A stretch of 64,000 nucleotides of DNA from Bacillota bacterium (GTDB taxonomy: Bacteria; Bacillota; Negativicutes; JBAXTZ01). Within the stretch, counting starts at the first letter, position 1. Every line of letters begins with the position of its first letter. Both the position numbers and the translations under genes were made by a program. Location of the stretch: assembly GCA_037129925.1 (NCBI GenBank), contig JBAXTZ010000015.1:1-64000 (forward strand). Direction: 5' to 3'. The notes under the pieces were generated by a model. The model had not been told where the DNA came from. It was given only the letters and a program-made list of their open reading frames with translations, and searched no databases. Shown here piece by piece: positions 3,600-60,973 of this stretch.

Positions 3600-5036
3600 T
3601 TACGCGCAGGTCCAATCGTACAACTCAACGTACTCTTTCGCGGAATGTTTCCAGGAAAAATCGCTGTTCATTGCATTTTTTTGAATCTGTTCCCAATGAG
3701 CCGGATTATGGAAGAAGCTCACAGCGCGCCTGATAGTATATAACATATCGTGAGCATTTACAAATGCAAACGAGAAACCGTTGCCTTCGCCATTTTTTTC
3801 ATTATAAGCGCGAACAGTGTCACGCAGTCCGCCAGTTTCGCGCACGATTGGCACTGTACCATAGCGCATGGCCATAATCTGGCTCAATCCGCACGGCTCG
3901 TACAACGACGGCATCAAGAACAAATCGCAACCGGCGTATATTTGCTGGGCCAGTTTCGCGTCAAAATACATGTGAACCGACAATTTGTGCGGATACATGT
4001 TTTGGGCGTTGCGGAATAATTCTTCAAATTTCGGATCGCCGGTGCCAAGAATTACTAGCTGGACATTATCATACTCCATCATTTCCCACAGCACTTGCTC
4101 AACTAACCCAAACCCTTTGGCAGCAATCAAGCGGCTTACCATGCCAATAACTGGAATATCCTTATTGACTGGCAGTCCCAGTCGTTCCTGGAGCGCCAGC
4201 TTGTTCCCGACTTTTTTCTCCAGCGTGGTTACGTCATAATTGACCGCGATCATTTTATCGGTTTTAGGGTTGTACAAATCATAGTCGATACCATTGACGA
4301 TACCAAACAAATCATTGCTGCGCGCCCGCAACAAGCCCTCAAGTTTTTCGCCATATTGGGCTTCCTGAATTTCGTAAGCGTAGCTGTTGCTGACGGTGCT
4401 GATTATATCCGCGTAAGTAAGCCCGCCCTTCATGAAGCTGGCATTGCCATGGAACTCAAGCTTGTCAGCGGCTAACCATTCATTGCCAAAATGGAGCAGA
4501 TGGGTTGCCACTGTTGGCGCGCAAATACCTTGGTACTTCATGTTATGCACAGTGTATAAAGTACGAATATTGGCATAGAACGGATAGCGTTTGTAATGAG
4601 CGTGTAACAATGGCGGAACCATGCCGGTCTGCCAGTCGTTACAATGAATGAGATCCGGTTGAAAATCGACATGCGGTAAAAATTCCAAAATCGCCCGGCT
4701 GAAAAACGCAAACCGTTCGTAATCATCAGCATAACCATACAAATCCGGACGATCGAAATACTCCATATTGTCCAGAAAATAAAAGGTCACGCCCTCGTAT
4801 TCGTATTGCTCAATACCGCAATATTTCACTTCATGACCAAGCGGAATACCAATGTTTTTCTTCCAAACCATTGCGTTACGATACTTTTCGGGAATTTTCG
4901 AGTATTTCGGAATAACTACCCGAACATCAACGCCTTGCTTAATCAGTTCTTTTGGAAGGGCGCCAATGACATCTGCCAATCCGCCGGTTTTGACAAATGG
5001 CACACATTCTGCTCCGGCTAATAGTACTTTTTTCAT
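3600..5036 (-). CDS. glgA: Glycogen synthase (ADP-glucose type)
   Basis: 478 aa. The N-terminal KTGGLADV motif is present and the protein has a GT5 GT-B fold signature. Confidence 0.9.
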   Translation of the reverse strand: MKKVLLAGAECVPFVKTGGLADVIGALPKELIKQGVDVRVVIPKYSKIPEKYRNAMVWKKNIGIPLGHEVKYCGIEQYEYEGVTFYFLDNMEYFDRPDLYGYADDYERFAFFSRAILEFLPHVDFQPDLIHCNDWQTGMVPPLLHAHYKRYPFYANIRTLYTVHNMKYQGICAPTVATHLLHFGNEWLAADKLEFHGNASFMKGGLTYADIISTVSNSYAYEIQEAQYGEKLEGLLRARSNDLFGIVNGIDYDLYNPKTDKMIAVNYDVTTLEKKVGNKLALQERLGLPVNKDIPVIGMVSRLIAAKGFGLVEQVLWEMMEYDNVQLVILGTGDPKFEELFRNAQNMYPHKLSVHMYFDAKLAQQIYAGCDLFLMPSLYEPCGLSQIMAMRYGTVPIVRETGGLRDTVRAYNEKNGEGNGFSFAFVNAHDMLYTIRRAVSFFHNPAHWEQIQKNAMNSDFSWKHSAKEYVELYDWTCA

Positions 5037-5055
5037 ATATTATCCTTTCTTTCTT

Positions 5056-5148
5056 GAGGTAAGAAGTAGGAAGTAGGAGGTAGGATGTAAAAGGCATGAC
5101 GTGGAACTCTCCCAACATCTTACTTCTTACATCTTACTTCCTACTTCT
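5056..5148. promoter_or_regulatory. Long imperfect inverted repeat (about 32-nt arms built from AGTAGGA-like sub-repeats) in the glgD-glgA intergenic region
   Basis: The left arm is aagaagtaggaagtaggaggtaggatgtaa. The reverse complement of the right arm is agaagtaggaagtaagatgtaagaagtaaga, matching at about 26 of 31 positions. The loop is about 25 nt. Confidence 0.55.
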
Positions 5149-5152
5149 AATT

Positions 5153-6271
5153 TCAGATTATGTAGTTTTTCTCGATGACGATCGGCATGGTGGTTTCACC
5201 CTTCATGCTTCGACCGCTGGTTATTTGCACGTTTTTATCAAAGATTACGCGATCAATATAAGCATTTTCTTCGACGCGAACTTTTTGCATCAAAATACTG
5301 TTGCGCACCACCGCGCCGCGGGCAACGTGAACGCCACGGAACAATACGCTGTTTTCAACTGTTCCTTCGATATGGCAACCATTAGCGATAACCGAGTTAA
5401 TAACTTTGGCGCTCGACGAATATTTCGCCGGAGCTTCGGAACGGGTTTTAGTGTATATCAAGCCGTTCGAAAAATACAAGTCATTGCGAACTTCGGGGTT
5501 CAAGATGTCCATGTTGTGTTTGTAATAGCTATAGACTGAGTCAACGCGGCCGATATAGCCTTCATGCTCATAGCCATATACGCGGTAAGTGTCAAGGTTA
5601 CGCAAAATTCCGTCCATCGCCAAATTGTTTTGGCCCCTGGCGATACAGTTGTCGATTATTTCAATCAACACGGTGCGTTTCATGATATACATTTCCATTG
5701 CCAGACAATCATTATGAGTTTCGCGGGCGTTGTAAGCCATGTCAGTTACCCGACCGCGCTCATCAACTGCCATTGTCAGGGCGCCCTCTAACGGATAGTC
5801 ATTGCCAACGTTTTTGTATATCACAGTAATTTCAGCATCTTTTTCCAAATGATACATAAACGCTTTTTTGTAATTGATATTGCAAACAGTGCCAGCCGGT
5901 GAAATCACAATATATTCATGGCGGCAATTACGCAAATAGTTAATATTGGCATGGAAATTTTCCAAATCCTTAGACAGCTGACCACGGCGTTTTGCGTTAC
6001 CATCAGCCGCCGGCAAAATAAACAAACCATCTTGCTGACGGTCAAGATCCCACTCTTTCCCTGAGCGAATATGATCAATCAGCGGACCGAATTTCTCCGG
6101 CATCAAAATTCCCACGTTAATTATTCCCGAATTGACCAAGTTAGACAACGCGAAATCGATCAGCCGATAGCGGCCGCCAAACGGAATTGCGGAAACCGGA
6201 CGATGTTTAGTCAATTCGTATAAATTTTCTTCGTTCTCATTTAAGTTGAGAATCGCCATTACGTTTTTCAT
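5153..6271 (-). CDS. glgD: Glucose-1-phosphate adenylyltransferase regulatory subunit GlgD
   Basis: 372 aa. It is a paralog of GlgC that lacks the GGxGxRL motif (PFGGRYRLIDF is retained). It sits between glgC and glgA, as in Firmicutes glgBCDAP operons. Confidence 0.75.
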   Translation of the reverse strand: MKNVMAILNLNENEENLYELTKHRPVSAIPFGGRYRLIDFALSNLVNSGIINVGILMPEKFGPLIDHIRSGKEWDLDRQQDGLFILPAADGNAKRRGQLSKDLENFHANINYLRNCRHEYIVISPAGTVCNINYKKAFMYHLEKDAEITVIYKNVGNDYPLEGALTMAVDERGRVTDMAYNARETHNDCLAMEMYIMKRTVLIEIIDNCIARGQNNLAMDGILRNLDTYRVYGYEHEGYIGRVDSVYSYYKHNMDILNPEVRNDLYFSNGLIYTKTRSEAPAKYSSSAKVINSVIANGCHIEGTVENSVLFRGVHVARGAVVRNSILMQKVRVEENAYIDRVIFDKNVQITSGRSMKGETTMPIVIEKNYII

Positions 6272-6302
6272 ATGTTTATATACTCCTTATCATTAACAAT
6301 TC

Positions 6303-6323
6303 GGGCGATTCGTGAATCACCCC
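6303..6323. promoter_or_regulatory. Imperfect copy of the same palindrome (gggcgattcgtgaatcacccc) in the glgC-glgD intergenic leader
   Basis: It lies 32 nt upstream of the glgD start and is followed by an AAGGAG RBS. Confidence 0.45.
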
Positions 6324-6337
6324 TCCGATTATTTAAT

Positions 6338-7534
6338 CTAAACATTATCCTTGCCAACGGTGGCATCTTTACGAATTCTCGTTCCCGCCGGAATTTTTGT
6401 ATCTTCACCAATAAGCACTACTCCGCCGTTATCGCCAAACGGACCTTCGGCTGCATCGCGCCCGATGATACAAAACTCGCCCAACTCGGTATTTTCGGCA
6501 ACGATTGCTTTTTCGACATAAGCGCCTTTACGGACAATTGTTCCAGCGTATAGCACTGAATCTTTTACGACCGCGCCTTCTTCGATTACAACGTCACTAA
6601 ACAAGATCGAATGATCGACCTTGCCGTAAATCCGGCAACCTTCGCCGACCATCGAACGGTGTACTTCGCCAGTCACACCGACATAATGCGGCGGACGTAC
6701 CGGCGATACGGAAAAGATGCGCCATTTCGGGTCATAAAGATCAAACGCCGGAATATCTTCTAACAAGTCCATGTTTGCTTCCCATAAGCTGTCCACAGTT
6801 CCTACGTCTTTCCAATAGCCTTGGAACCGGAACGCGAACATCCGTTGAGCATCGGCTAACATATTCGGCAGGATATTTTTGCCAAAATCATGGTCGGTAT
6901 CCAGAGGTGCATCGGCGATAAGATACTCGCGCAATTTGGCGTAAGAGAAAATGTACACACCCATCGAAGCCAAGTTGCTTTTCGGCTCTTTTGGCTTCTC
7001 GGCAAATTCAACGATTGCGCCAGTTTCGTCAGTCGCCATAATTCCGAAACGGGAAGCTTCAGCCCACGGCACTTCAAAAACTGCTATCGTGCAATCGGCA
7101 TTTTTTTCTTTATGGGCTGCTAGCATTTCGCTATAGTCCATTTTGTAAATATGGTCGCCGGACAAAATCAATACATATTCCGGGTCCTGGATGTCCAGAA
7201 ACTCGATGTTTTGATAGATTGCGTCAGCAGTGCCTTTGTACCATTCGCCGCCTTTTTCGTCAGCATACGGTGGCAAAGTGTACACGCCGCCATAAGTGCG
7301 GTCGAGATCCCAGGCCGTGCCGGTACCGATATAACTATGCAGCGCAAACGGTTTGTACTGAGTGAGCACGCCGACTGTATCCATACCGGAATTTTGGCAG
7401 TTGGATAATGGAAAATCGATAATGCGATACCGACCGCCGAAGCCGACTGCCGGCTTGGCAATTTTTTTGGTCAGCAGCTTCAACCGCGCGCCTTGACCAC
7501 CTGCTAAGATCATTCCTAACCATTCTTTACGCAT
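6338..7534 (-). CDS. glgC: Glucose-1-phosphate adenylyltransferase
   Basis: 398 aa. It carries the [10 protein letters not shown] motif, [14 protein letters not shown], and a C-terminal left-handed beta-helix. Confidence 0.9.
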
Positions 7535-7568
7535 AAAACCCTCCTGAATTTTTGGAAATAATTATTCT

Positions 7569-9593
7569 TTACGGTAATTCGCTTATTTGCTTGGCATCGA
7601 CCAGATCCTTGGCTTTTTTGACTTCGGCAACCTGCGGTTTCGCCACAATTAATTTTTCCGGTTTGACTCGTTTGATGTTTTTCGGTTTGAAAATAACTGT
7701 TGCCAACGGCGGCACGGTGATTTTTATTTGGAATGCGTCAGCATTGAAATCGTGTTTCTCGGTTTCGATTTTTTGAGAGTTTTTTATATCCGAACCGCCA
7801 AACTTCTCCCAATCCGAGTTGATAAGTTCTTCGTATTCGCCCGGCCCCGGCACATCAAGCTTGTAGCCTTCGCGCACTACCGGAGTGAAATTGGTTATCA
7901 CTACCAAAAAGTCGCTATCGTCTTTTCCTAGTCGCAGATAACTGAGCGTACTGCCTTCGGCATCATTGGCATCCACCCACGAAAATCCATCCCAGCTTTG
8001 TTCAATTTCCCATAAACATTTATGTTCAAGATAAATATGATTGAGTTCACGCACATAATCCTGTAATTGACGATGCTTATCGTATAGACACAATTTCCAT
8101 TCCAGACCTTCGGCAAAGCGCCATTCCACGAACTGTCCGAACTCGCCGCCCATGAACAATAGCTTTTTGCCAGGCAACGTCATCATATAGCCGAACATCG
8201 ACCGCAAGCCGGCAAATTTACGCCAATAATCGCCGTTTTGTTTATCCACCAGCGAATATTTACCATGGACAACTTCATCATGCGACAGCGGTAAAACGAA
8301 ATTCTCGGAAAAAGCATACATCATTGAAAAGGTCAATAGATTATGATGCCAGCGGCGATAGATCGGATCCATTTTGATATATTTCAAAGTGTCGTTCATC
8401 CAACCCATATTCCACTTGTAGTCAAACCCCAATCCGCCGATATAAGTCGGACGGGTGACTTGCGGCCACTCGGTAGATTCTTCCGCCATTGTCAAAATGT
8501 CCGGAAACTCCTTGTGCAGTACCTCGTTCATTTTGCGCAAAAATGCTACAGACTCAATGTTTTCCTTGCCACCATAAATATTGGGCTCCCACTCGCCTTC
8601 TTTTTTGTTGAAGCTCAAATACAGCATATTAGCCACTGCATCAACGCGCAAGCCATCGACATGGAATTTTTCCATCCAGAAAATCGCATTGGAAATCAAG
8701 AAACACTGTACTTCTGGTTTGCCGTGATCAAAATTGGCAGTACCCCATTCATTATTATCGGCACGCCATGGCACCGACCACTCATATGTAGGCGTTCCGT
8801 CAAAATAATACAGCCCGTGTGCATCCCGGCAATAATGTCCCGGCACCCAATCCATCAGCACCCCGATACCGTTTTGGTGACACTGATCCACAAAATACAT
8901 GAAGTCTTTCGGATGTCCGAAACGTGCCGATGCCGCGTAATAGCCAGTGGCTTGGTAGCCCCAGGACGCGTCCAGCGGATGCTCGTTTATCGGCATGACT
9001 TCGATATGGGTATAGCCCATCTTTTTGACATATGGCACCATATCATCCGCCAGCTCGCGATAACTCAACATCAGTCCCTGTCCGTCATCATGACGTTTCC
9101 AAGATCCCATATGTACTTCGTAAATATTTATCGGACGAGTTTTACCGCGCAACGCTTTTTGGTCGGCGTACCACTGGGTATCACTCCACTCGTAGCCCTC
9201 AATATTTGCGACTTTCGATGCAGTATCCGGGCGTAGTTCGGCAAAAAAAGCATATGGATCGGCTTTTTTTAATACTACACCAGTTTTGGAATGGATTTCA
9301 TATTTGTACGTTGTATCAATCGCTAATTCCGGCTTGAAAATAGTCCATACTCCGGAGTGCCCCAAACGCTTCATCTCGCAATCTGGAGTGCCCAACCACT
9401 GGTTCCACATCCCGATTAAATAAACTTTATCGGCATTAGGCGCCCACACAGTAAAGCGAACACCATCAACATCGTTTTCGCGTTTGAGATGCGCGCCAAA
9501 CAAATTATATGCACGATAGTTTGTACCTTGATTAAACAGATGCACATCTTCTTGTGATACTGGCCATTTGTCTTTCTCTTTTGTTTTCTTCAT
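7569..9593 (-). CDS. glgB: 1,4-alpha-glucan branching enzyme with a lysine-rich C-terminal tail
   Basis: 674 aa. GH13 catalytic motifs are present (GVLMDWVPGH, FHVDGLRVDAV, EESTEW, LSHDEV), together with an N-terminal CBM48-like region. Confidence 0.9.
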   Translation of the reverse strand: MKKTKEKDKWPVSQEDVHLFNQGTNYRAYNLFGAHLKRENDVDGVRFTVWAPNADKVYLIGMWNQWLGTPDCEMKRLGHSGVWTIFKPELAIDTTYKYEIHSKTGVVLKKADPYAFFAELRPDTASKVANIEGYEWSDTQWYADQKALRGKTRPINIYEVHMGSWKRHDDGQGLMLSYRELADDMVPYVKKMGYTHIEVMPINEHPLDASWGYQATGYYAASARFGHPKDFMYFVDQCHQNGIGVLMDWVPGHYCRDAHGLYYFDGTPTYEWSVPWRADNNEWGTANFDHGKPEVQCFLISNAIFWMEKFHVDGLRVDAVANMLYLSFNKKEGEWEPNIYGGKENIESVAFLRKMNEVLHKEFPDILTMAEESTEWPQVTRPTYIGGLGFDYKWNMGWMNDTLKYIKMDPIYRRWHHNLLTFSMMYAFSENFVLPLSHDEVVHGKYSLVDKQNGDYWRKFAGLRSMFGYMMTLPGKKLLFMGGEFGQFVEWRFAEGLEWKLCLYDKHRQLQDYVRELNHIYLEHKCLWEIEQSWDGFSWVDANDAEGSTLSYLRLGKDDSDFLVVITNFTPVVREGYKLDVPGPGEYEELINSDWEKFGGSDIKNSQKIETEKHDFNADAFQIKITVPPLATVIFKPKNIKRVKPEKLIVAKPQVAEVKKAKDLVDAKQISELP

Positions 9594-9771
9594 AAATTGC
9601 CTCCTTTCTGAAAAAAGTATAATGATTACCTTCTTTTATTCGACAAGTTTTCCAAAACTCCTTCTTGTCGGCAAATATTTTCTCGCGAACGGTTAACCTT
9701 CTAAAATCTATTTCATATTAACTCAAGCGGAATTTTTGCGCAATACAAAAAAACTTATAAAACTACCGCAG

Positions 9772-9800
9772 TTGACTAAATATCGCTCATCTCTTACAAT
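9772..9800 (+). promoter_or_regulatory. Sigma-70-like promoter for the 9824 gene, with the divergent glgB promoter region on the other strand
   Basis: TTGACT (9772-9777), a 17-nt spacer, then TACAAT (9795-9800). A GAGGTG RBS at 9813-9818 precedes the ATG at 9824. Confidence 0.4.
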
Positions 9801-9823
9801 GAATAAAAAACCGAGGTGCAACC

Positions 9824-10780
9824 ATGTCAAAATATCAACAATTCGATTTTAGCAATATCAAATCCTGTAGCATTGCCGACCGTCAAAGCAAAGTGGATAT
9901 TGATAATTTTGCTTGCATACCTGCAGACAATTCAATGACAGCGTTCCTGGACAGTCTACCGGATATTTTATTTGGTAAACAGTTCAAAGAATTCGTCGCG
10001 ATTTACAAAAACGCCATCACCAATAAAAAACCGATAATCTGGATGATGGGGGCGCACGTCCTCAAGAGCGGGTTGTCGCCGCTGATTATCGACCTGATGC
10101 AAAAGAAATTAATCTCGCATTTGGCGCTAAATGGCGCCGGCGCGATTCACGATGTTGAAATCGCCATGTGGGGTCAGACCAGCGAAGATGTCGCCGTCGC
10201 ACTGCAAGACGGCTCGTTTGGAATGTGCCGGGAAACTGCCGCTTTTATTAACGATGAACTAAACCAGCACGCTGATGATGACCTCGGCTACGGCGAAGCG
10301 ATCGGCGAGAAGTTACTGCGACTAAACCCCGCCAATATTCATCTGAGCGTTGTGGCAAACTGTGTTAAAGAAAATATTCCCCTCAGCGTCCACTCGGCAA
10401 TCGGCACCGAAATCATTCAACAGCACCCGAATTTCAACGGCGCGTCCGCCGGAAAAAAAGCCGAAATTGATTTCAAAATATTTACCAATTCAGTGGCAAA
10501 ACTCACTAAAGATTCTTTGGTAATCAGTTTTGGCTCGGCGGTAATTTTACCGGAAGTCTTCCTCAAAGCGCTGACCGTCGTCCGCAATCTCGGTCATGAC
10601 GCGTTCGGGTTTAATACCGCGGTTTTCGACATGATCCGCCACTACCGGCCGTTTGAAAATATCGTCCATCGTCCGACAATTCCTAATGGCAAAGGCTATT
10701 ATTTCATCGGTTGTCACGAATTGATGCTGCCGTTGATATATAATTTGGTTAAGGACGAAAAGTCGAGTTCAGAGTCCTGA
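9824..10780 (+). CDS. Deoxyhypusine synthase-like protein (DHS-like NAD-binding fold); function unknown
   Basis: 318 aa. GAHVLKSGLSPLIIDLMQKKLISHLALNGAGAIHDVE aligns in pattern with eukaryotic/archaeal DHS ([35 protein letters not shown]). This is a weak but recurrent resemblance. Confidence 0.4.
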   Translation: MSKYQQFDFSNIKSCSIADRQSKVDIDNFACIPADNSMTAFLDSLPDILFGKQFKEFVAIYKNAITNKKPIIWMMGAHVLKSGLSPLIIDLMQKKLISHLALNGAGAIHDVEIAMWGQTSEDVAVALQDGSFGMCRETAAFINDELNQHADDDLGYGEAIGEKLLRLNPANIHLSVVANCVKENIPLSVHSAIGTEIIQQHPNFNGASAGKKAEIDFKIFTNSVAKLTKDSLVISFGSAVILPEVFLKALTVVRNLGHDAFGFNTAVFDMIRHYRPFENIVHRPTIPNGKGYYFIGCHELMLPLIYNLVKDEKSSSES

Positions 10781-10841
10781 GTCAAGAGTTCTGAGTTCAG
10801 AGTTCAGAGTTCAGAGTTCAGAGTCCTGAGTTTTGAGTTTA
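10765..10841 (+). repeat. Tandem heptanucleotide repeat (GAGTTCA-like, 11 units) spanning the stop codon of the 9824 gene
   Basis: Units read gagttca/gagtcct/gagtcaa/gagttct/gagttca x4/gagtcct/gagtttt/gagttta. The TGA stop at 10778-10780 lies inside unit 2. Confidence 0.8.
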
Positions 10842-10845
10842 CGTC

Positions 10846-10872
10846 GCGCAGAATTATTCTGCGCTTTTTTTT
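10846..10872 (+). terminator. Rho-independent terminator
   Basis: Stem gcgcagaa / ttctgcgc with a 3-nt loop, followed by T9. Confidence 0.75.
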
Positions 10873-10939
10873 ATTAGTTTTGCAGGAAATTGAAAATATT
10901 TGCCGAATATATTGCTTATCTTATTTTGGGAGAGAGAAT

Positions 10940-12439
10940 ATGAAAAAGCTTATTGCGCTACTCTTGATTTTGGCGCTCGCTACGACATTGCTGTCCGGCT
11001 GCGGAACCAGCGTCAAGAAGGATGATTTGAAAGATGAAGTCCACCTCATCTGGTACACGCTTGGCACCACTCCGGAAGATAATGCGCTCGTAACCGAGGA
11101 AGTCAACAAATACCTTAAAGGTAAAATCAACGCCACGATTGAATTTCGCTATATTGAATGGGGCGACTACGACCCGAAAATCAAAACCATCACCACGGCC
11201 GGCGAACCGTTTGATTTTATGTTCACCAGCACTTGGATAAACGACTTTACCCAAAACGTCGCTGCTGGAAAACTATTGCCGCTGAACGATTTAATTGACC
11301 AATATGGCAAAGAAATGAAAGCTGCCATCGACCCGGTATATCTTGAATACACTCGCATTAACGGCATTAATTACGCCATTCCGACCAATAAAGAGCAAGG
11401 CACCATCATGAACTACGCGCTCAACAAAAACATTGCCAGCAAATATAACATCGATATTACAAAAATACTAAAAACTGAGGATTGGGAGCCGGTATTTGCC
11501 AAGATAAAGCCTGACCACATTTATGGCTTCAGTATCGACAAGAACAACGGCTTTGTCATGCCGGAATACGATTTTATCATCGACTCCAAATACCCCGGCG
11601 CAGTTAGAATGGATGACCCGACTTGCAAGGTAATTAATCAATTTGAAAGTCCGGAATTTATTAACGAGTTGAAAACCTATCGAAGATTTTACCAAAAAGG
11701 CTACATCCGCCCAGATGCGTTCACAATCGATTGGGCAACAGCGATAAATGATTTTTCTACCGGTAAATCTGCCGTTATGTTTGCCGAAGATATTCATACC
11801 GCCATAGAACTTTTGCCAAACAATGTTGATTGGCTGGAAAAACAGCGCAAAGCGCCACTCGAGCTTCAACCCTGTTTCCCGAAACCGATTATCAACACCC
11901 GCTCGTTGTCAGTATCAATGATCGGAATTTCCGCGACCAGCCAGCATCCGGAGCGGGCGATGATGTTTTTGAACCTGCTAAACTCCGATAAATATCTCCG
12001 CAATCTGGTCGGCTTTGGCATTGAAAACGTGCATTATAAGAAAATCGATGCCGACACCATTGATTTGTTGCCACGTTCAACAAAGTACACCACTAACCAA
12101 GGCGCATTTGGCAACTGCTTAATTCTCTACGGCACACTGGACAGCAAAACCGGCAAGAAAACTTACGAGGGCGACTACAGCATCAAGGTTAAAGCCGTGA
12201 ATGCCAACAGCATAAAATCTCCATTGTTGGGATTTTATTTCAACCCCACTCCGGTAAAAACTGAAATCGCCGCCATCGTCAACAACGCTCATGAATTCAC
12301 TTCACCGCTCTATACCGGCGCCATTGATCCCGAAGAAGGCATCAAAAACTATATGGCAAAAGCCCGTGATGCCGGTATGGATAAAGTACTTGCCGAGATG
12401 CAAAAACAAATCGACGAGTGGAAAAAGACACGCAAGTAA
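10940..12439 (+). CDS. Extracellular solute-binding lipoprotein (ABC transporter substrate-binding protein, family 1-like)
   Basis: The lipoprotein signal MKKLIALLLILALATTLLSGCG follows a GGGAGAGAG RBS. The ORF track starts earlier, at 10880. The protein is about 500 aa with an SBP fold. Confidence 0.6.
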   Translation: MKKLIALLLILALATTLLSGCGTSVKKDDLKDEVHLIWYTLGTTPEDNALVTEEVNKYLKGKINATIEFRYIEWGDYDPKIKTITTAGEPFDFMFTSTWINDFTQNVAAGKLLPLNDLIDQYGKEMKAAIDPVYLEYTRINGINYAIPTNKEQGTIMNYALNKNIASKYNIDITKILKTEDWEPVFAKIKPDHIYGFSIDKNNGFVMPEYDFIIDSKYPGAVRMDDPTCKVINQFESPEFINELKTYRRFYQKGYIRPDAFTIDWATAINDFSTGKSAVMFAEDIHTAIELLPNNVDWLEKQRKAPLELQPCFPKPIINTRSLSVSMIGISATSQHPERAMMFLNLLNSDKYLRNLVGFGIENVHYKKIDADTIDLLPRSTKYTTNQGAFGNCLILYGTLDSKTGKKTYEGDYSIKVKAVNANSIKSPLLGFYFNPTPVKTEIAAIVNNAHEFTSPLYTGAIDPEEGIKNYMAKARDAGMDKVLAEMQKQIDEWKKTRK

Positions 12440-12444
12440 CGCTT

Positions 12445-12538
12445 GACAAGTTATCAAGTTATCAAGTTGTCAAGTTGTCGAGTTATCAAGTTATAAAGTT
12501 ATCGAGTTGTCGAGTAGTCGAGTAGTCGAGTGGTCGAT
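12445..12538 (+). repeat. Tandem octanucleotide repeat (CAAGTTAT-like, about 12 units) in a 3' intergenic region
   Basis: Units read caagttat/caagttat/caagttgt/caagttgt/cgagttat/caagttat/aaagttat/cgagttgt/cgagtagt/cgagtagt/cgagtggt. The tract begins 6 nt after the TAA stop. Confidence 0.8.
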
Positions 12539-12548
12539 AGAATTGGAA

Positions 12549-12594
12549 CATCCCCGACCGGTGCAAAATGCGGCGAGCGGGGATGTTTTTGTTT
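12549..12594. terminator. Bidirectional rho-independent terminator between convergent genes
   Basis: Stem catccccg...cggggatg, followed by TTTTTGTTT on the plus strand and an A/T run on the other. Confidence 0.65.
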
Positions 12595-14200
12595 AAAAAC
12601 TCTTGCCGAGCTGAATACCGAGACTATTCGCCGAATATGCGCCGCCGGTGTTTAGATAATCCACCTGCACTGAAAACCCGTCCGCCAGAATCAGCTTGCC
12701 GCCACCACCGGCAGTATAAATATACTGTCCGAGCGCCGCGCTTGCAGTTTCGTCAGTTACACTGATTGTTGCAGCATTGCCCAACCGGCTGGCAGCACTG
12801 GTATCCAGCCAGATACTTACGAGTTTACTGTCATTTCGATAGAAATCTTTCTGCAATTTGAGCCCGGCACCAGCCAGACCGGTGTTCCAGGTCGTGGTGT
12901 TTACCGTTGCACCAAGCCCATCTCCAAAAGCGCCGATATAATAATTATCCATCCCGGCAAACAGCTGCGGCTGCAGTAGCCAGCCGTTGCCAAAATCACA
13001 ATCCAGTCCGCCCTGAATTCCGGCGACAAAATGGTTACCGGAATAATTCACCGTGAAATTCTGCGCGCTACCACCACTCCAGCTGTTAACGGTATTGGAA
13101 AAAGAATTTCGTCCAAATGCCAGTTCGGCTGACAGATACGGCGATACCACCCGCTTCAACGGCGCCTGCCAAGCCAGATAAGCGCCACCGCGCCAGTCGT
13201 TTACCACGTTGTTGATAGTACCGCTGCTGTCAGTCTGATTGATATTGCCGTAATTAAAAAACACGCCGCTAAATACCGAACTGCGTTTATCGTCTTTGCC
13301 GGCAAGCTTGGCATCCCAACCGACAGTTACACCATAATCGTTGCTGTTATAGTTGAAGTTGCCGTTATAAGTACTCTTTTGAATATAATAGTTGGTGCCG
13401 ATTTTAATAACATTGCTGACTATCATCTCGTTGTTCGTGGCGTTGTCCGTGTAGGACGACTGGCTGCCATATAAAGATGCCCAGATGCCATCGGCGGTCA
13501 CACCATTGCGGCGTACCGAATCAACATGTCCGCGCACAACCACTTCAACATCGTCACTCAACAGTTGTGCGGCGTTAAGCGCTGATGCATAACTCTCCAA
13601 ATACGCCGGCGAGTACAGCGCATAGACCAGCCAACCGTTTATTTCCTTGCTATCGTTAAGTAACCAATACTGCGCCGGTCCGCCCGGACGCACCGTTCCG
13701 TCCGGCTCGGTGAACGCTGCGCCGGATCCGGTAATTATCAATTGTCCTGCTGGAATTTCTATCCAGTACATTCCCGTCATCGGATTATTCCATTGTTCCA
13801 GAACCGCCATATCCATACGCTGGTCGTATAGCGATTCATATTTCCCGCCATACCAGTGCCCCAATCCGTACTGCTTCGCTGCCTCATTATTTACTGACCG
13901 ACGGAATACTTTCATCGAATTAGAGGTTTCCATAATTTGAATTTTCGTATCCACAAACGAAGAAAAGTCACTAAAAGCACTATCGGTGCCGTTGAAAGTA
14001 AAACCAGCCGCAACCAGCACCGCTTTCTTGGCAGCTAGCATATCGGCGTAAACAATCGTCCCGTTCTTATATTGTTGATCCAGCGTCGTCAATTGCTGAT
14101 TCCAAACAGCAACCTGCGCCGGGGTGACCGGTCCGGGTTTCGCGTAGCACACGCTTGTAACAAATAGCACGAGCACAGTTATGCAAAGCCACTTTTTCAT
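12593..14200 (-). CDS. Outer-membrane beta-barrel protein (autotransporter-like), secreted
   Basis: 535 aa with a signal peptide (MKKWLCITVLVLFVTSVCYA). The C-terminal ~250 aa are rich in G/N/S/T/Y and end in ...GIQLGKSF, a C-terminal Phe typical of OM beta-barrels. Confidence 0.5.
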   Translation of the reverse strand: MKKWLCITVLVLFVTSVCYAKPGPVTPAQVAVWNQQLTTLDQQYKNGTIVYADMLAAKKAVLVAAGFTFNGTDSAFSDFSSFVDTKIQIMETSNSMKVFRRSVNNEAAKQYGLGHWYGGKYESLYDQRMDMAVLEQWNNPMTGMYWIEIPAGQLIITGSGAAFTEPDGTVRPGGPAQYWLLNDSKEINGWLVYALYSPAYLESYASALNAAQLLSDDVEVVVRGHVDSVRRNGVTADGIWASLYGSQSSYTDNATNNEMIVSNVIKIGTNYYIQKSTYNGNFNYNSNDYGVTVGWDAKLAGKDDKRSSVFSGVFFNYGNINQTDSSGTINNVVNDWRGGAYLAWQAPLKRVVSPYLSAELAFGRNSFSNTVNSWSGGSAQNFTVNYSGNHFVAGIQGGLDCDFGNGWLLQPQLFAGMDNYYIGAFGDGLGATVNTTTWNTGLAGAGLKLQKDFYRNDSKLVSIWLDTSAASRLGNAATISVTDETASAALGQYIYTAGGGGKLILADGFSVQVDYLNTGGAYSANSLGIQLGKSF

Positions 14201-14270
14201 GACGTTCCCCCGTTCGCGATTTTTTCACCTGCGTTACTCAAATTATATACCCACAGTTGCAGCTTTTCCA

Positions 14271-14906
14271 CTATTGCCACAGCAGTTGGATGCATTCCCA
14301 GAGAAATTTCAAAGCAAAAACGATTATCACCGCGCCACAGATTTTGTTAATGACACCAAAAATTCGCGCAGATATCAGATGCCGCAGTAGCGCGACCGCA
14401 ATAGTCAACCCCGCAAACCACAACAGCGAGGCGCTGCACATCCCGAGGAAGAAAACATTCTTCGCCGCTTCGGGCAATCCAGCGTTAACCGTCCCGAAAA
14501 GAATCGAGCCATCGATCAGTGCGTGCGGATTGAGCCAGGTTACGACGAACAAGTCACGACAGACACTCCAGAAGGAATAGTTTTTGGTACCGGCATCAGT
14601 TTTTATAACGACTGCTGTACGAATCAGCTTGATACCGATAATCAGCAACATTATAAATCCGGCAAACAAAATCAATGATTTCAGCCAGGAAAACCGATCA
14701 ATCAACGCGCCTAACCCAAGAAAACAAGCCGTCGCAAGCGAAATGTCCATAAACGAAACGATTAGTATGGTAATGATATGGCAACGCCAACCACCCCGCA
14801 GCGCCGCGTTAATCACATAAATATTCTGTAGACCAATCGGCACAACATAGGCGATGCCGAGTAAAAGACCTTGAAGAAAATACATAATTACTAAGTCCTC
14901 TATCAA
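14271..14906 (-). CDS. LysE/ArgO family amino-acid exporter
   Basis: 211 aa, six TM helices, and a LysE-type N-terminus (LLGIAYVVPIGLQNIYVINAALRGG). Confidence 0.75.
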   Translation of the reverse strand: MIEDLVIMYFLQGLLLGIAYVVPIGLQNIYVINAALRGGWRCHIITILIVSFMDISLATACFLGLGALIDRFSWLKSLILFAGFIMLLIIGIKLIRTAVVIKTDAGTKNYSFWSVCRDLFVVTWLNPHALIDGSILFGTVNAGLPEAAKNVFFLGMCSASLLWFAGLTIAVALLRHLISARIFGVINKICGAVIIVFALKFLWECIQLLWQ

Positions 14907-15008
14907 AAATCGGCTACACAGGTAATTCGCGTCTCATACTTTAAACACAATCAATTATTGACGTTTGCCATATATTCTTTGTTGTTTTGCCATTATCAAC
15001 TTGCGTAC

Positions 15009-15401
15009 TCATTTTTTCATACGATCACAGGCTTGCCACGCGACACAATAGACCACTACAGGAATAATGAACAACACTAAGTGTAGAAATTTATCCAAGT
15101 CATAAACACCTAGCCTCCAAACTGCCAGATAAAAAGTGTACAAGGAAAATACCGCTGCACCTACGATCGCTATTTTACTATTTTGATAGATTCCTATAGC
15201 TGTGCTCATAAGCAAAACCAGCGTGAAATACTCCAATAATCCTGCTGTGTGTAAATTAAAGAATACCAATAATACATATCCTACTACTAGGATAACGTTA
15301 TAGATAACTGCAGGAATTAACAACTGCTTGTTTTGCCAGTTTTGTTCTTCTTTCTTTTCTTCAAGCGTCAAATTAGCGAATTGTTTACGATATTCATTCA
15401 T
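15009..15401 (-). CDS. Membrane protein fragment homologous to the C-terminal module of the zinc-ribbon membrane protein family (split from the 15450..17669 ORF)
   Basis: 130 aa. NWQNKQLLIPAVIYNV...VVYCVAWQACDRMKK aligns with the C-terminus of the 25281..27155 protein (FRQNKQLLIPAILFNV...ITVYSVAWQAAGRIKK). Confidence 0.55.
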   Translation of the reverse strand: MNEYRKQFANLTLEEKKEEQNWQNKQLLIPAVIYNVILVVGYVLLVFFNLHTAGLLEYFTLVLLMSTAIGIYQNSKIAIVGAAVFSLYTFYLAVWRLGVYDLDKFLHLVLFIIPVVVYCVAWQACDRMKK

Positions 15402-15449
15402 CGATTTCCCGGCAAAAACTGCACTGATTATCCCGGCACATATAAATAC

Positions 15450-17669
15450 CTATCCCGTCACTACTCCAAAAGCCACAAACCCTGCCGCTGCACCGCAAAA
15501 GAGAAAAAAATAAGCCGGAAATATCACGACCGCAGCAATTTTGCTTTTTTCTATCAAACCAACATTAAGCATCAAAAGCAACAAAACAGAAACTATGAAA
15601 AACGCATTAACAAACTCCGTTTCCCGAAAAAACATCAAACCCGAACAAATAATCAAAATGCAATGATTTATCCAAACCGACCTTGATATTGCTAAGCGGT
15701 TTTTTAAAAAACTATCTACTGAATTAACTTGAACACCTTCAATTTCCGAAGAAACGTCCAGTTTGCTCGGTTTAATTAAAGTCGATTTTGCCTGAACCAC
15801 ATCTCTTACAGAAGCCATTTGCTTTTCCGTTTGAACATTATCAACTTTTAACATTTCATAAACTACTGCAAGTGTCGGTAAATAAAGCAAACAATACAAA
15901 ATATGTCCCAATATCAAAGAACAATACAAAAGTACTTTCAGCAGAATTTTCTCAACAGGACTTTTTTGAAAAAACAAAAATACTACTATCACGCCAATAA
16001 AAAACGCCGTACCTGCCGCAAGAACAGATGTAGCAACATAGCGTAAATTCAACAAGAATAGCTTCCACTTATACCCTTTCACGAGCCTGCGGCTTTCTTG
16101 CATACAATCATCGGACGACATTTCTGGACAATCATTCATAATAAAAACCGATAAAGAGTATTCAAGATACGCAACAATTCCCGGCACAACGAATAATACC
16201 GTCCAAAATGCCGTCTTGATAAACGTCGAAAAAACTATCAAAAAGGATTTACGAAAATCTTTTATTCCGACAAATAATACGCTATAAATTGGCAAGCTAT
16301 CTTTCGCAATTTTACTAAGTAAAATGGCATAGCCCTTACTACTGACTATAATAAAAAATAATGAGCACAAGAGCGAAATTAAAAATAGCGGAAACAACCA
16401 ACCATAAGGCAATTTGTCGCGAAATGTTGATGAAAAAAACAAAAGATAAATCACCGGCAAAAAAACAAACACTGATTGCAAGATGAAAATTGAAACCAAT
16501 CCTTTAAAATGCGATTTTGCCGCAAGCATCCCATTTTTTCGAATTTCCAAATTGTCTTTGTTTATCCAAACAGCACTACGCTTTGTTTGCAACACCACCT
16601 GTGAATCTAGCATTTCCAATGTTTCAATGCAATGTTTACTCTGCCGGGGTTCGATTTCACTCACGCCAATTTCGACAGCTTTCACGCCCTCTTTCAACAG
16701 TCTATGATATTCCCATGCTGCAATAATAGACCGATAATACAGAAAAGCCGAAGCAATTATCAAGACACTTGAACCAATCAAGACTGTCCATTTGCTGACG
16801 GCAACTAACGCTGCAAGTAGCAAAATATACATTAACGAGGAGATCAATACGCAAATTCGATTACCCCGGAATATCCCAAATCCAATTAAAGCAACACCAA
16901 CGGAGACTAATAACCCGCCGAGATATGCTCCCATGCTAATAATTGCATATCCGGCTATCCCCCAGTGCATGATGGCCAATATTTGGAAGGAATTTTTTAC
17001 AGCTCTAATGCGCACTTTGTACTCAGATCCCATGATGCTGGTTTCCGAAAAATCTACAGATTTACCGCAACGCACGCAGAACAATGCCGTCTGATCCGAG
17101 GTGTCTTTTGTTTGAATTATCTCAATAACGTAATAACAAACCAGAAGGCACACCGATGCTGAAAGAACAAACTGCCCTTGTCCGATACAAACTAGCAACA
17201 TAAAGATCGCTAAAACGCAAAAATATACAAATATCTTGAAGAAATTTGCGCCTTTAGCTAGCTGACCAGCTAAGCGTAATTGTTTTTCACTGGTTTGTAC
17301 ACTATGTCTTGCAAAATCATCTTCAACGCAGTCTCGACAAAACAACAAGAATACCTGCTTCCTGTTCTTGAACAGGGAGTAAATACATAAGCCAAGCATG
17401 ATGAACAGCAATAATACGTTCAAATACTCGTTCTTGGCTCCGATTGCTAACACAACCATAAGCATTGGCATCAGTACAAACGCCAACGCCAAAAATGAAC
17501 TCCTGCGATGTTCCTTGACCAATATATCAACGCCGTTGTTTTCTGCCATTATGCTAAAATCGCTGCTGGCAGTCAGGTCATTACCGCATTTCATACAACA
17601 CGTTGGATTATCGTCGATACCCGCACCGCATTTTATACAATACATTTTTCTCTCCATGATAGTTTTCAT
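15450..17669 (-). CDS. Zinc-ribbon polytopic membrane protein (paralog family, member 1); probably truncated/split
   Basis: 739 aa. An N-terminal C4 zinc ribbon (MYCIKCGAGIDDNPTCCMKCGND) is followed by more than 15 predicted TM helices with interspersed CxDC and CVRCG motifs. It is a paralog of the 25281, 24153, 22056 and 20590 ORFs. Confidence 0.6.
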   Translation of the reverse strand: MKTIMERKMYCIKCGAGIDDNPTCCMKCGNDLTASSDFSIMAENNGVDILVKEHRRSSFLALAFVLMPMLMVVLAIGAKNEYLNVLLLFIMLGLCIYSLFKNRKQVFLLFCRDCVEDDFARHSVQTSEKQLRLAGQLAKGANFFKIFVYFCVLAIFMLLVCIGQGQFVLSASVCLLVCYYVIEIIQTKDTSDQTALFCVRCGKSVDFSETSIMGSEYKVRIRAVKNSFQILAIMHWGIAGYAIISMGAYLGGLLVSVGVALIGFGIFRGNRICVLISSLMYILLLAALVAVSKWTVLIGSSVLIIASAFLYYRSIIAAWEYHRLLKEGVKAVEIGVSEIEPRQSKHCIETLEMLDSQVVLQTKRSAVWINKDNLEIRKNGMLAAKSHFKGLVSIFILQSVFVFLPVIYLLFFSSTFRDKLPYGWLFPLFLISLLCSLFFIIVSSKGYAILLSKIAKDSLPIYSVLFVGIKDFRKSFLIVFSTFIKTAFWTVLFVVPGIVAYLEYSLSVFIMNDCPEMSSDDCMQESRRLVKGYKWKLFLLNLRYVATSVLAAGTAFFIGVIVVFLFFQKSPVEKILLKVLLYCSLILGHILYCLLYLPTLAVVYEMLKVDNVQTEKQMASVRDVVQAKSTLIKPSKLDVSSEIEGVQVNSVDSFLKNRLAISRSVWINHCILIICSGLMFFRETEFVNAFFIVSVLLLLMLNVGLIEKSKIAAVVIFPAYFFLFCGAAAGFVAFGVVTG

Positions 17670-18484: not shown

Positions 18485-19294
18485 TCACTGATTACAATCA
18501 ATTGCTCGTTTCAAATTCCGGGAGTGCGTAATCCGGTCCAACAGCCAACCGTCTGAGTGGCGGATGAAGCGCCACTCTTCTTCAAACCGCGTCGGTGCGG
18601 ATTTGTTGCCGTCGACAACTTCGTTCGTCTCTGTGTCAACGGTGTAGTCAATCATCTCGCCGAGGATGTACGCAGTAAAAGCGCTAATACCGTATTTCGG
18701 ATTGGACACCTTGATAATTTCGCACTTTAGCAGCCTGATATCTTTGAGAATGTTGTGCTCATGCTGATTGTCCATATCGCGGTATGAATCCTGCCATTCT
18801 TCCTGCAGCCGCTCCGTCATGCAATCACGCAGACAACGGTTATCATGTTTCGCCCAGGCATCCTGCGCTTTAAAATAAGTATCGGTCACAACCTCAATCA
18901 GATATTGTTTGTCCCAGTTGATATCGGCTGCTGCATGACGTTGCAGCCGAAAATGACTCCACCTGCTTTGCAGTGGCCGGAGCATTTTGGCAACCGTCTG
19001 GCTAGTGCGGGTTTTGTACCAGATATAAAACGCAACCATCAGAAAAAAGATAATTATGAGCAGATAATCAAATGGCGTCCACGGTCCTGTCGAGCCTCCT
19101 GCGCCACCAGCATGTCCGCCAACAAAACCGCCGCCAAAACCGTGCGACCCACCACCGCCGCCATGTCCACCGCCCCCGCCACCGTGACCACCGCCACCGC
19201 CGCGGGCGAAGACAGACGAAGAACTTATTTTTAAAAAACCCAACAGAACCCAAGCATTAACATAGTATCTGATTGTTTTCATTATTTTCACCAT
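18485..19294 (-). CDS. Tim44-like (NTF2-fold) membrane-anchored protein with a Gly/His-rich segment
   Basis: Signal peptide, then GGGGGHGGGGGGHGGGGGSHGFGGG, one TM helix, and a C-terminal Tim44-like region (WRFIRHSDGWLLDRI). Confidence 0.45.
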   Translation of the reverse strand: MVKIMKTIRYYVNAWVLLGFLKISSSSVFARGGGGGHGGGGGGHGGGGGSHGFGGGFVGGHAGGAGGSTGPWTPFDYLLIIIFFLMVAFYIWYKTRTSQTVAKMLRPLQSRWSHFRLQRHAAADINWDKQYLIEVVTDTYFKAQDAWAKHDNRCLRDCMTERLQEEWQDSYRDMDNQHEHNILKDIRLLKCEIIKVSNPKYGISAFTAYILGEMIDYTVDTETNEVVDGNKSAPTRFEEEWRFIRHSDGWLLDRITHSRNLKRAIDCNQ

Positions 19295-60466: not shown

Positions 60467-60973
60467 TTAACTCTCCTTATCAGAATCGTAGCTCTCAGCT
60501 ATCGAACTAAGCAGCAGTTCGGTATCAACCATATGCTCACCTAATAAAAATGCGATATTCTGAACCACCGCGATGTTCTTGGCGATAACTTCGCGGGCTT
60601 GCTTGGCAATTTCTTCGCGGGGTTGCTCAAATTTGGTGATGTCGGTAGCTTGAATACCGACTATCCGGTTTAACTCAATGGAGAATATCTTTAAATCATA
60701 TATTTTGTCGTTATAGCTATAGCGCTTTATGTGGATATTTTCACCGGTAGCCAGCACTTCACGCAAATTATCTACACTGGGAAATATTCGTTCGACTGAA
60801 GCTCCCTGAATTCCTTCATCGAACGAATTAAAAACATCCAGCATATCAATCGCCCACATTTTCACAAACGCCTCGTTGGCTTCGATTACTTTAAGTCGTT
60901 CATCTACAACCACCATCGCTGACGGGATTTTTTGCAACAAAGCCGAGGAATAATCGTCAAAGTCTTTTTTCAT
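60467..60973 (-). CDS. PAS-domain sensor protein (no kinase domain)
   Basis: 168 aa with an N-terminal PAS-like fold. Its start overlaps the upstream ferredoxin gene by 4 nt. Confidence 0.45.
   Translation of the reverse strand: MKKDFDDYSSALLQKIPSAMVVVDERLKVIEANEAFVKMWAIDMLDVFNSFDEGIQGASVERIFPSVDNLREVLATGENIHIKRYSYNDKIYDLKIFSIELNRIVGIQATDITKFEQPREEIAKQAREVIAKNIAVVQNIAFLLGEHMVDTELLLSSIAESYDSDKES

Follow-up and report, generated by a model that had tools for sequence, protein, structure and literature searches.

Why should one bacterial gene end in a row of near-identical heptamers, and the next gene in a row of octamers, each array stopping a few nucleotides short of a transcription terminator? 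The question is raised by a 64,000-nt stretch of contig JBAXTZ010000015.1 (assembly GCA_037129925.1), from a Bacillota bacterium of the Negativicutes lineage JBAXTZ01. In this stretch, which we call the window, two short tandem repeat arrays, tract 1 and tract 2, lie between the end of a coding sequence and an intrinsic terminator. A model's reading of the letters alone (the sequence-only reading) had offered several roles for them: sites for an RNA-binding protein, slippage-prone length variants that tune terminator spacing or stability, or binding arrays for a DNA-binding protein. Comparison with relatives shows conserved flanks around a slot whose repeat units are lengthened, replaced or missing from one lineage to another. 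We consider it reasonably probable that the tracts are microsatellites born of slippage in the unconstrained gap between the last codon and the terminator, and that they probably have no sequence-specific function.

Two arrays between the end of a gene and its terminator

The arrays, their terminators and the genes that precede them are as follows.

10765–10841, plus strand: tract 1, a GAGTTCA-type heptamer array of 11 units, read by eye and with Tandem Repeats Finder (TRF)
10846–10872, plus strand: intrinsic terminator 1, GCGCAGAA-TTA-TTCTGCGC followed by T8, read from the sequence and kept in relatives L003 and L005
12447–12542, plus strand: tract 2, an octamer array of about 12 units, read by eye and with TRF
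12547–12594, plus strand: intrinsic terminator 2, a long GC-rich hairpin and U-tract, common to the convergent autotransporter gene (12593–14200, minus strand)
9824–10780, plus strand: gene upstream of tract 1, of a deoxyhypusine-synthase-like (DHS-like) family (about 312 residues), product of 318 residues, from the open reading frame (ORF) list and homologues
10940–12439, plus strand: lone gene for an extracellular solute-binding lipoprotein (SBP), with SBP_bac_1 and DUF3502 by Pfam

Read by eye, tract 1 runs GAGTTCA GAGTCCT GAGTCAA GAGTTCT, then four copies of GAGTTCA, then GAGTCCT GAGTTTT GAGTTTA, with a perfect four-unit core at 10793–10820 and degenerate edges; as RNA the repeat is (GAGUUCA)n. 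TRF reports 10765–10832 with unit GAGTTCA, period 7, 9.7 copies, 81% matches and a score of 87. The TGA of the upstream ORF, at 10778–10780, falls across units 2 and 3, and thus the eye, TRF and the ORF list all agree with the sequence-only reading that the array straddles this stop codon. Tract 1 is not wholly 3′ untranslated region (UTR), since units 1 and 2 encode the C-terminal residues of the upstream protein (...KSSSES*) and its stop. TGA codons at 10778, 10792 and 10827 cover all three frames. The 3′ edge of the array lies 4 nt from the terminator 1 stem, which is GC-rich and 8 bp long (10846–10864).

Tract 2 is wholly non-coding. It begins 8 nt past the TAA of the SBP gene (12437–12439) and ends 4 nt from terminator 2, whose hairpin spans about 12547–12587 and is followed by TTTGTTT. 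The proximity of both tracts to GC-rich terminators had been noted correctly, and so had the presence of a second array after the SBP gene; its bounds had been put at 12445–12538, 6 nt past the stop, and are revised here. The units grade from CAAGTTAT through CGAGTTGT to CGAGTAGT/CGAGTGGT and end in a degenerate copy; the unit type can also be given as CAAGTTAT/CGAGTNGT, and the RNA form as (CAAGUUAU)n. TRF finds period 8 at 12447–12537 (11.1 copies, 87% matches, scores 80–89), along with higher-order periods of 24 nt (score 101) and 32 nt (score 113), which indicate block duplications. Units differ more the farther apart they lie, the mean distance climbing from 1.27 between adjacent units to 5 at lag 11, a signature of stepwise local duplication.

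Both tracts are far above chance, given that the best TRF score for periods 5–9 in 100 dinucleotide-preserving shuffles of the window was 41. A clustered regularly interspaced short palindromic repeat (CRISPR) array, with repeats of about 24–48 nt and unique spacers of similar length, was rejected for these 7–8-nt head-to-tail units, which have no spacers. A coding repeat was rejected as well, since neither period is divisible by 3 and translation covers no more than units 1 and 2 of tract 1. The original placement of both tracts in 3′ UTRs, outside coding and CRISPR roles, therefore stands as a stop-to-terminator position, except for units 1 and 2 of tract 1, which are coding.

A conserved slot with changing content

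To follow the slot among relatives, we used contigs encoding close homologues of the 9824–10780 protein. The flanks align at 80–89% identity. In L005, the nucleotide alignment to the window (89% identity) breaks at 10758–10844 and resumes at the terminator. The slot holds the following repeats, given with the amino-acid identity of each relative.

L662 (88%): GAGTTCT CAGTCTT GAGTCAA GAGTTCT GAGTTTG, about six GAGTTCT-type units
L003 (86%): two copies of GAGTCCA, then three of GAGTTCT, about six units of GAGTCCA/GAGTTCT type
L004 (92%): GCTGAAA, 3.4 copies
L005 (94%): three copies of TTAGGGG, then two of ATTTGG (L005 positions 6298–6330)
L006 (88%): no repeat

The TTAGGGG unit of L005 is telomere-like and prone to form G-quadruplexes (G4).

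On its 5′ side the slot is bounded by a coding sequence that is kept to ...LVKDE in all the Negativicutes homologues but L003, the tail of which diverges a few codons earlier. Alignment of C termini shows that the wider DHS-like family ends a few residues past a conserved ...LPL motif, and that the later residues are variable and repeat-encoded. Every relative that has an array has its stop codon inside it. On the 3′ side, terminator 1 and the SBP leader are kept where the SBP gene is present (L003 and L005). Stop codon and terminator are about 32 to 108 nt apart in the relatives, and the arrays of L004 and L662 lie about 100 nt from the terminator.

The two GAGTT-type relatives and the SBP gene of L003 show how copy number has changed. 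The L662 array corresponds to window units 1–4 plus the tail, so the window differs from it by about five extra central units, which include the perfect four-unit core. The region 3′ of the SBP gene in L003 holds one copy of CAAGTTGT, against the twelve units of tract 2 in the window; on the simplest reading, this local copy means that tract 2 was not imported from tract 1. Between species the counts are thus 11 versus about 6 for tract 1 and 12 versus 1 for tract 2, in agreement with the proposal that these are length variants of the slippage type. The locus provides a clean comparative series, from a new lineage of groundwater Negativicutes, for the birth, expansion and replacement of arrays in one fixed slot.

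The arrays are unchanged between strains

In L001, an independent NCBI assembly, both arrays are base for base as in the window, and L002, a Logan assembly, matches the window until its contig breaks inside tract 1. The arrays are therefore not assembly artefacts. The window and L001 are 99.66% identical, with 25 single-nucleotide polymorphisms (SNPs) over 7.4 kb, no indels and unchanged arrays. A comparison of copy number across strains, which had been suggested as a check, found no difference among the window, L001 and L002 (99.66–99.97% identical), which with only two or three assemblies is weak evidence. The tracts are therefore variable between species but not hypermutable.

Most of the SNPs between the window and L001 fall in three patches, 8076–8178 (12 SNPs), 9421–9471 (5) and 10966–11006 (6), a patchiness that suggests recombination tracts and not evenly spread mutation. 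A gap between the two sequences at 15450–15497 was considered as a repeat polymorphism and rejected, since it is a run of N in L001.

A heptamer-armed hairpin between glgD and glgA

One more such element, the third, is found upstream in the window, on the other strand.

5059–5148, minus strand: intercistronic hairpin whose arms are inverted heptamer arrays, GTAGGAA-type (4.4 copies) and TCTTACT-type (4.4 copies), found with TRF and folding

It occupies most of the 116-nt spacer (5037–5152) between glgD (5153–6271) and glgA (3600–5036). The orthologous hairpins of L003, L005 and L006 all fold strongly, with z-scores of −4.5 to −6.4 over the four lineages examined. The arms vary from about 15 to 30 bp and are built of GTAGGAA, GTAAGAG or GTTGGAA units; that the hairpin is kept while arm length and units differ implies that both arms changed together. 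The hairpin has no U-tract and is followed directly by the glgA ribosome-binding site. Within the glg operon it may serve mRNA stability or processing.

Similar arrays are widespread

TRF was also applied to every locus retrieved through protein homology, a set not selected for repeats. Period 7 dominated the short tandem repeats of the Calditrichaceae, Zixibacteria and Ignavibacteriales loci, and a stop codon is no more than about 30 nt away from most of the arrays there. One of these loci, in a Calditrichaceae metagenome-assembled genome (MAG; JABWBP010000023.1, positions 9790–16876), carries six short-period arrays in 7 kb, far denser than in the window: AAAATGC (6 copies), TCCCCAT (7.3), GTGAATA (4.9), CAAGAGC (4.3), the 8-mer TCCATTAA (12.8) and CACTTCT (3.4). 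Each of them is intergenic, and for four a stop codon is no more than about 30 nt away.

In metagenomes, a scan with four GAGTTNN units returned at least 120 stretches with heptamer arrays, on contigs of 31–69% GC. Among the matches listed, 34 are stop-proximal with GAGTT in the mRNA sense and 11 are stop-proximal in antisense; nine of each are start-proximal. Among the same listed matches, GAGTT arrays often have a reverse-complement partner close by (L031, L038, L055, L058, L060, L069, L084, L093, L101 and L147). After stop codons, such pairs would fold into imperfect hairpins of great length. Four metagenome contigs from other organisms (L042, L073, L075 and L084) hold several arrays of one unit, that is, a dispersed family.

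The sequence-only reading had singled out a shared functional core, [CG]AGTT[AGC]T, in the two tracts. In viral contigs, period-7 arrays with control cores are as frequent as those with GAGTT: at least 120 stretches for GAGTT, at least 120 for TGGAT and 116 for GATGT. Because of these equal frequencies, and because relatives carry unrelated units or none at the same site, the AGTT/GAGTT core is not special; this candidate was rejected, with the single-copy seed in L003 as a further point against it. In the same contigs, counts by period, which are semi-quantitative only, were at least 120 stretches for period 7, 56 for period 8 (GAGTT) and 102 for period 10. Period 7 is thus commoner than period 8.

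Proposed slippage in an unconstrained gap

We propose that slipped-strand mispairing during replication would duplicate and delete whole units, and sometimes blocks of three or four. The resulting arrays would persist and grow only where the sequence may vary, which here would be the slot that separates the final constrained codon from the stem of the terminator. The coding sequence, under purifying selection, would then set the 5′ edge of an array, and the terminator hairpin, itself under selection, its 3′ edge. With periods of 7 and 8, neither divisible by 3, an array entering the end of a gene would soon run into a stop codon of its own, which would explain the position of tract 1 across the TGA. 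Assembly breaks, a variable C-terminal tail and a lengthened 3′ UTR would be incidental effects. In practice, such arrays alter annotated C termini, break short-read contigs, as in L002, and can pass for regulatory motifs. The same process is our favoured account of tract 1, tract 2 and the glgD–glgA hairpin, and we infer from it that the arrays are nearly neutral.

Several observations weigh against slippage in a free gap as the whole explanation. A GAGTT-type array has been kept across about 12–14% protein divergence and beside different downstream neighbours, a persistence that could point to constraint, although the array is partly coding. Among the metagenome matches listed, the G-rich strand is in the mRNA sense about three times as often as in antisense after stop codons (34 versus 11), which plain neutral slippage would not predict, although the bias may stem partly from arrays at gene ends having to supply a stop in the sense frame. 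Arrays occupy only three of the approximately 24 intergenic gaps of at least 40 nt in the window, and all three fall within 8 kb. The identity of the arrays across a pair of strains separated by 25 SNPs shows that they are not hypermutable on that time scale. Finally, we know of no one who has explained mechanistically the preference for 7 nt. The frequency of 7-nt tandem repeats beside bacterial stop codons is an old unsolved question, and series such as this one are needed to separate mutational bias from function.

Functional readings of the arrays

Searches for known elements in and around the tracts were negative. An Rfam 15 E-value search of 4500–13500 gave three sub-threshold chance matches, none in either tract, and nothing at gathering score. 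A promoter scan of 10765–10841 and 12445–12540 found no site.

The arrays might instead act in the 3′ UTR as a spacer or semi-structured module that sets the distance between ribosome and terminator or shields the 3′ end, copy number tuning termination or mRNA stability. We consider this unlikely. Both tracts do end 4 nt before a terminator stem, as such a module might, yet the distance from stop codon to stem is anything but fixed among the relatives, at roughly 32 to 108 nt. L006 has no array, those of L004 and L662 stand about 100 nt away from the terminator, and other terminators in the window have none. Folding, a check proposed for the 3′-UTR RNAs, gave a divided answer: tract 2 alone reaches z = −5.2, whereas tract 1 (z = −1.9) and the L662 array (z = −0.2) are not significant. 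Sense-strand array RNAs fold better than antisense ones, owing to G–U pairs, and the sense bias of GAGTT arrays among the listed metagenome matches points the same way, as does the related glgD–glgA hairpin, which is kept as a structure in four lineages. A conserved structure of the array RNA was rejected, however, as the folds are weak (tract 1 and L662) or local palindromes (tract 2) and are not conserved. With this range of distances, these folds and the identity of the arrays between strains, nothing found here supports the earlier suggestion that the arrays tune terminator spacing or stability.

A broader version would make stop-anchored heptamer arrays a functional 3′-end module shared across phyla, and not neutral filler. 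We rate it as quite unlikely, and keep it in view because unrelated units recur in one slot, one array type persists and the sense bias is about 3:1. If it were true, the arrays could reflect 7-nt duplication coupled to transcription or translation, a selected cassette combining a three-frame stop with a spacer, or a platform for a factor that binds 3′ UTRs. Any such function would be relevant to 3′-end biology across many phyla.

Regularly spaced triplets next to a terminator also recall the targets of ring-forming regulators. TRAP of Bacillus binds 11 (G/U)AG triplets with 2–3-nt spacers, and HutP, likewise of Bacillus, recognises UAG triplets 4 nt apart beside a terminator, in two sets of three. 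The tracts resemble these targets in carrying evenly spaced NAG triplets just upstream of an intrinsic terminator, and tract 1 shares with the TRAP target the number 11. They could accordingly be platforms on which a multimeric RNA-binding protein reads (G/A)AG or AGUU, whether a TRAP- or HutP-like ring, CsrA, Csp or S1, and so controls termination or translation. The spacing differs from that of TRAP, with 11 GAG triplets at 4-nt spacers in tract 1 and 12 (A/G)AG triplets at 5-nt spacers in tract 2, and the triplets are not kept at orthologous sites, where GCTGAAA, TTAGGGG or no repeat is found instead. Downstream of tract 2 there is no gene to control, because the terminator there is shared with the convergent gene. 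Control cores are as abundant as GAGTT in viral contigs, and no candidate protein was found, none having been sought. Binding of S1, Csp or CsrA has been proposed for the TAACTGA heptamers discussed below (MacGregor 2015, PMC4679880). On balance, we regard an RNA-binding platform as improbable.

A role at the level of DNA, as an array for a DNA-binding or nucleoid protein or in replication, recombination or local genome stability, is very improbable. It would accommodate the three arrays within 8 kb, and every third heptamer (21 bp) or fourth octamer (32 bp) would lie on the same face of the helix, a spacing that the 24- and 32-nt super-periods bring to mind; rearrangements are fewer around heptamer-repeat loci elsewhere (Rehm et al. 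2015, PMC4692102). The unit sequence nevertheless differs between close relatives at the same site, each unit type occupies one locus within the window, and the strand bias relative to transcription points away from a role for double-stranded DNA alone. For the arrays of RNA- or DNA-binding sites put forward by the sequence-only reading, we found nothing in support.

Phase variation, in which slippage in tract 1 would toggle the C-terminal tail or stop of the upstream protein, is barely credible: the array does overlap the stop and its period is not divisible by 3, such that a unit change upstream of the TGA would shift the frame, but no more than two units, both degenerate, precede the stop, the slippage-prone perfect core lies downstream of it, TGA codons close any frame within tract 1, the affected tail is beyond the conserved end of the protein family, assemblies 99.66–99.97% identical show no difference in copy number, and tract 2 is wholly non-coding.

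Relation to described repeats

The anatomy of the tracts matches published accounts of heptameric simple sequence repeats (SSRs), and the tracts accordingly belong to this described and widespread class, which has no known function; the octamer is a rarer sibling. Each tract has a head-to-tail unit of 5–11 nt repeated beyond chance. Its position is stop-proximal on the coding strand, as it is in L003, L004, L005, L662 and the Calditrichaceae loci, and it varies in length and sequence between conserved flanking genes.

Heptanucleotides are the most abundant long SSRs (LSSRs) in most prokaryotic genomes, according to the work of Mrazek et al. (2007) as summarised in PMC4679880, and the same summary gives their proposal that the length of DNA contacted by the polymerase favours slippage in a heptamer register. 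The LSSRs of Mrazek, Guo & Shah (2007), as presented there, resemble the tracts in having motifs of 5–11 nt beyond chance, with heptamers commonest and periods that are not multiples of 3 outside coding sequence. They are a category of genome statistics, and that summary describes neither a stop-to-terminator anatomy nor lineage-level turnover for Negativicutes (PMC4679880).

Closer in anatomy are the heptamers GGGAATC of Xanthomonas and GGGGAYT of Nostoc/Anabaena, to which no regulatory role could be assigned (Rehm et al. 2015, PMC4692102). In two Xanthomonas genomes, 89–93% of the heptamers are intergenic, at a mean of 28 nt from the 5′ ORF and 160 nt from the next, and some Xanthomonas and Nostoc arrays are paired as inverted repeats (PMC4692102). 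Like the tracts, they are tandem 7-nt repeats in intergenic space, nearer the end of the upstream ORF, between the same gene pairs across species and variable in length and sequence; unlike the tracts, they form G4 structures, and one family occupies about 90–190 loci per genome (PMC4692102). The tracts are not G4-prone, with the exception of the L005 TTAGGGG array, have one locus per unit in 64 kb, include one with period 8 and come from a Negativicutes MAG. The short tandemly repeated repetitive (STRR) heptamers of heterocystous cyanobacteria such as Calothrix PCC 7601, as cited in PMC4692102, are likewise tandem intergenic heptanucleotides without known function, but consist of a few specific units at very many loci per genome, whereas each unit type of the window is seen at one locus in its 64 kb.

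TAACTGA heptamers are found in intergenic regions of marine Beggiatoaceae, some Cyanobacteria and Bacteroidetes in 2 to 43 copies (MacGregor 2015, PMC4679880). Strains differ in them by 7-nt indels, close relatives with the same gene neighbourhood can lack them, and contigs end inside the arrays, an anatomy much like that of the tracts. In Beggiatoaceae, however, they lie in the sense orientation just upstream of start codons, where translational control was suggested (PMC4679880), and the tracts follow stop codons. The reverse complement, (TCAGTTA)n, differs from tract 2, (TCAAGTTA)n, by one base per unit, a resemblance that is most likely coincidental.

The contingency SSRs of Haemophilus, Neisseria and Moraxella are similarly prone to slippage and change length in unit steps. 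They occur in promoters, 5′ UTRs and 5′ coding regions of surface-structure genes, have mostly 1–5-nt units and vary between sibling cells. The tracts lie at the 3′ ends of metabolic and transport genes, the tail that tract 1 encodes is outside the conserved protein, and copy number is identical between strains in the two or three assemblies available.

Gene neighbourhood and other repeats

The locus comprises glgB–glgC–glgD–glgA on the minus strand, the divergent DHS-like gene, the lone SBP gene, the convergent autotransporter gene and a LysE gene. The closest labelled genome is a groundwater Negativicutes MAG at 88% protein identity. A Pfam scan took in eight neighbouring proteins and gave no match for the 9824–10780 protein itself, which has more than 7,500 homologues, some annotated as PF21570 or PF01916. 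The SBP gene (aldouronate/LplA-like) sits between the two terminators without adjoining permease or ATPase genes. L003 and L005 have the gene at this locus and L004, L006 and L662 do not, and only two close orthologues are on record.

The leader from terminator 1 to the SBP start (10873–10939; GCAGGAA…TTGCCGAATATATTGCTTA…GGGAGAGAGAATATG) is kept in L003 and L005, where the array upstream of it is not. As a scan of the leader found no sigma-70-like promoter, another type of promoter, an operator or control by read-through may be present. The DHS-like gene and the SBP gene share a reading frame, with the TGA at 10778 as the lone in-frame stop up to an upstream TTG at 10880, since no stop codon occurs in GAGTTCA units; the shared frame is probably a coincidence.

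Two further repeats in the window lie within coding regions. A CCACCG/CCACCACCG-type repeat with periods of 6, 9 and 21 nt (19149–19203) is inside a minus-strand ORF (18485–19294), and a 24-nt unit present in 2.1 copies (60578–60627) is inside the ORF at 60467–60973. Their periods are multiples of 3, unlike those of the intergenic arrays.

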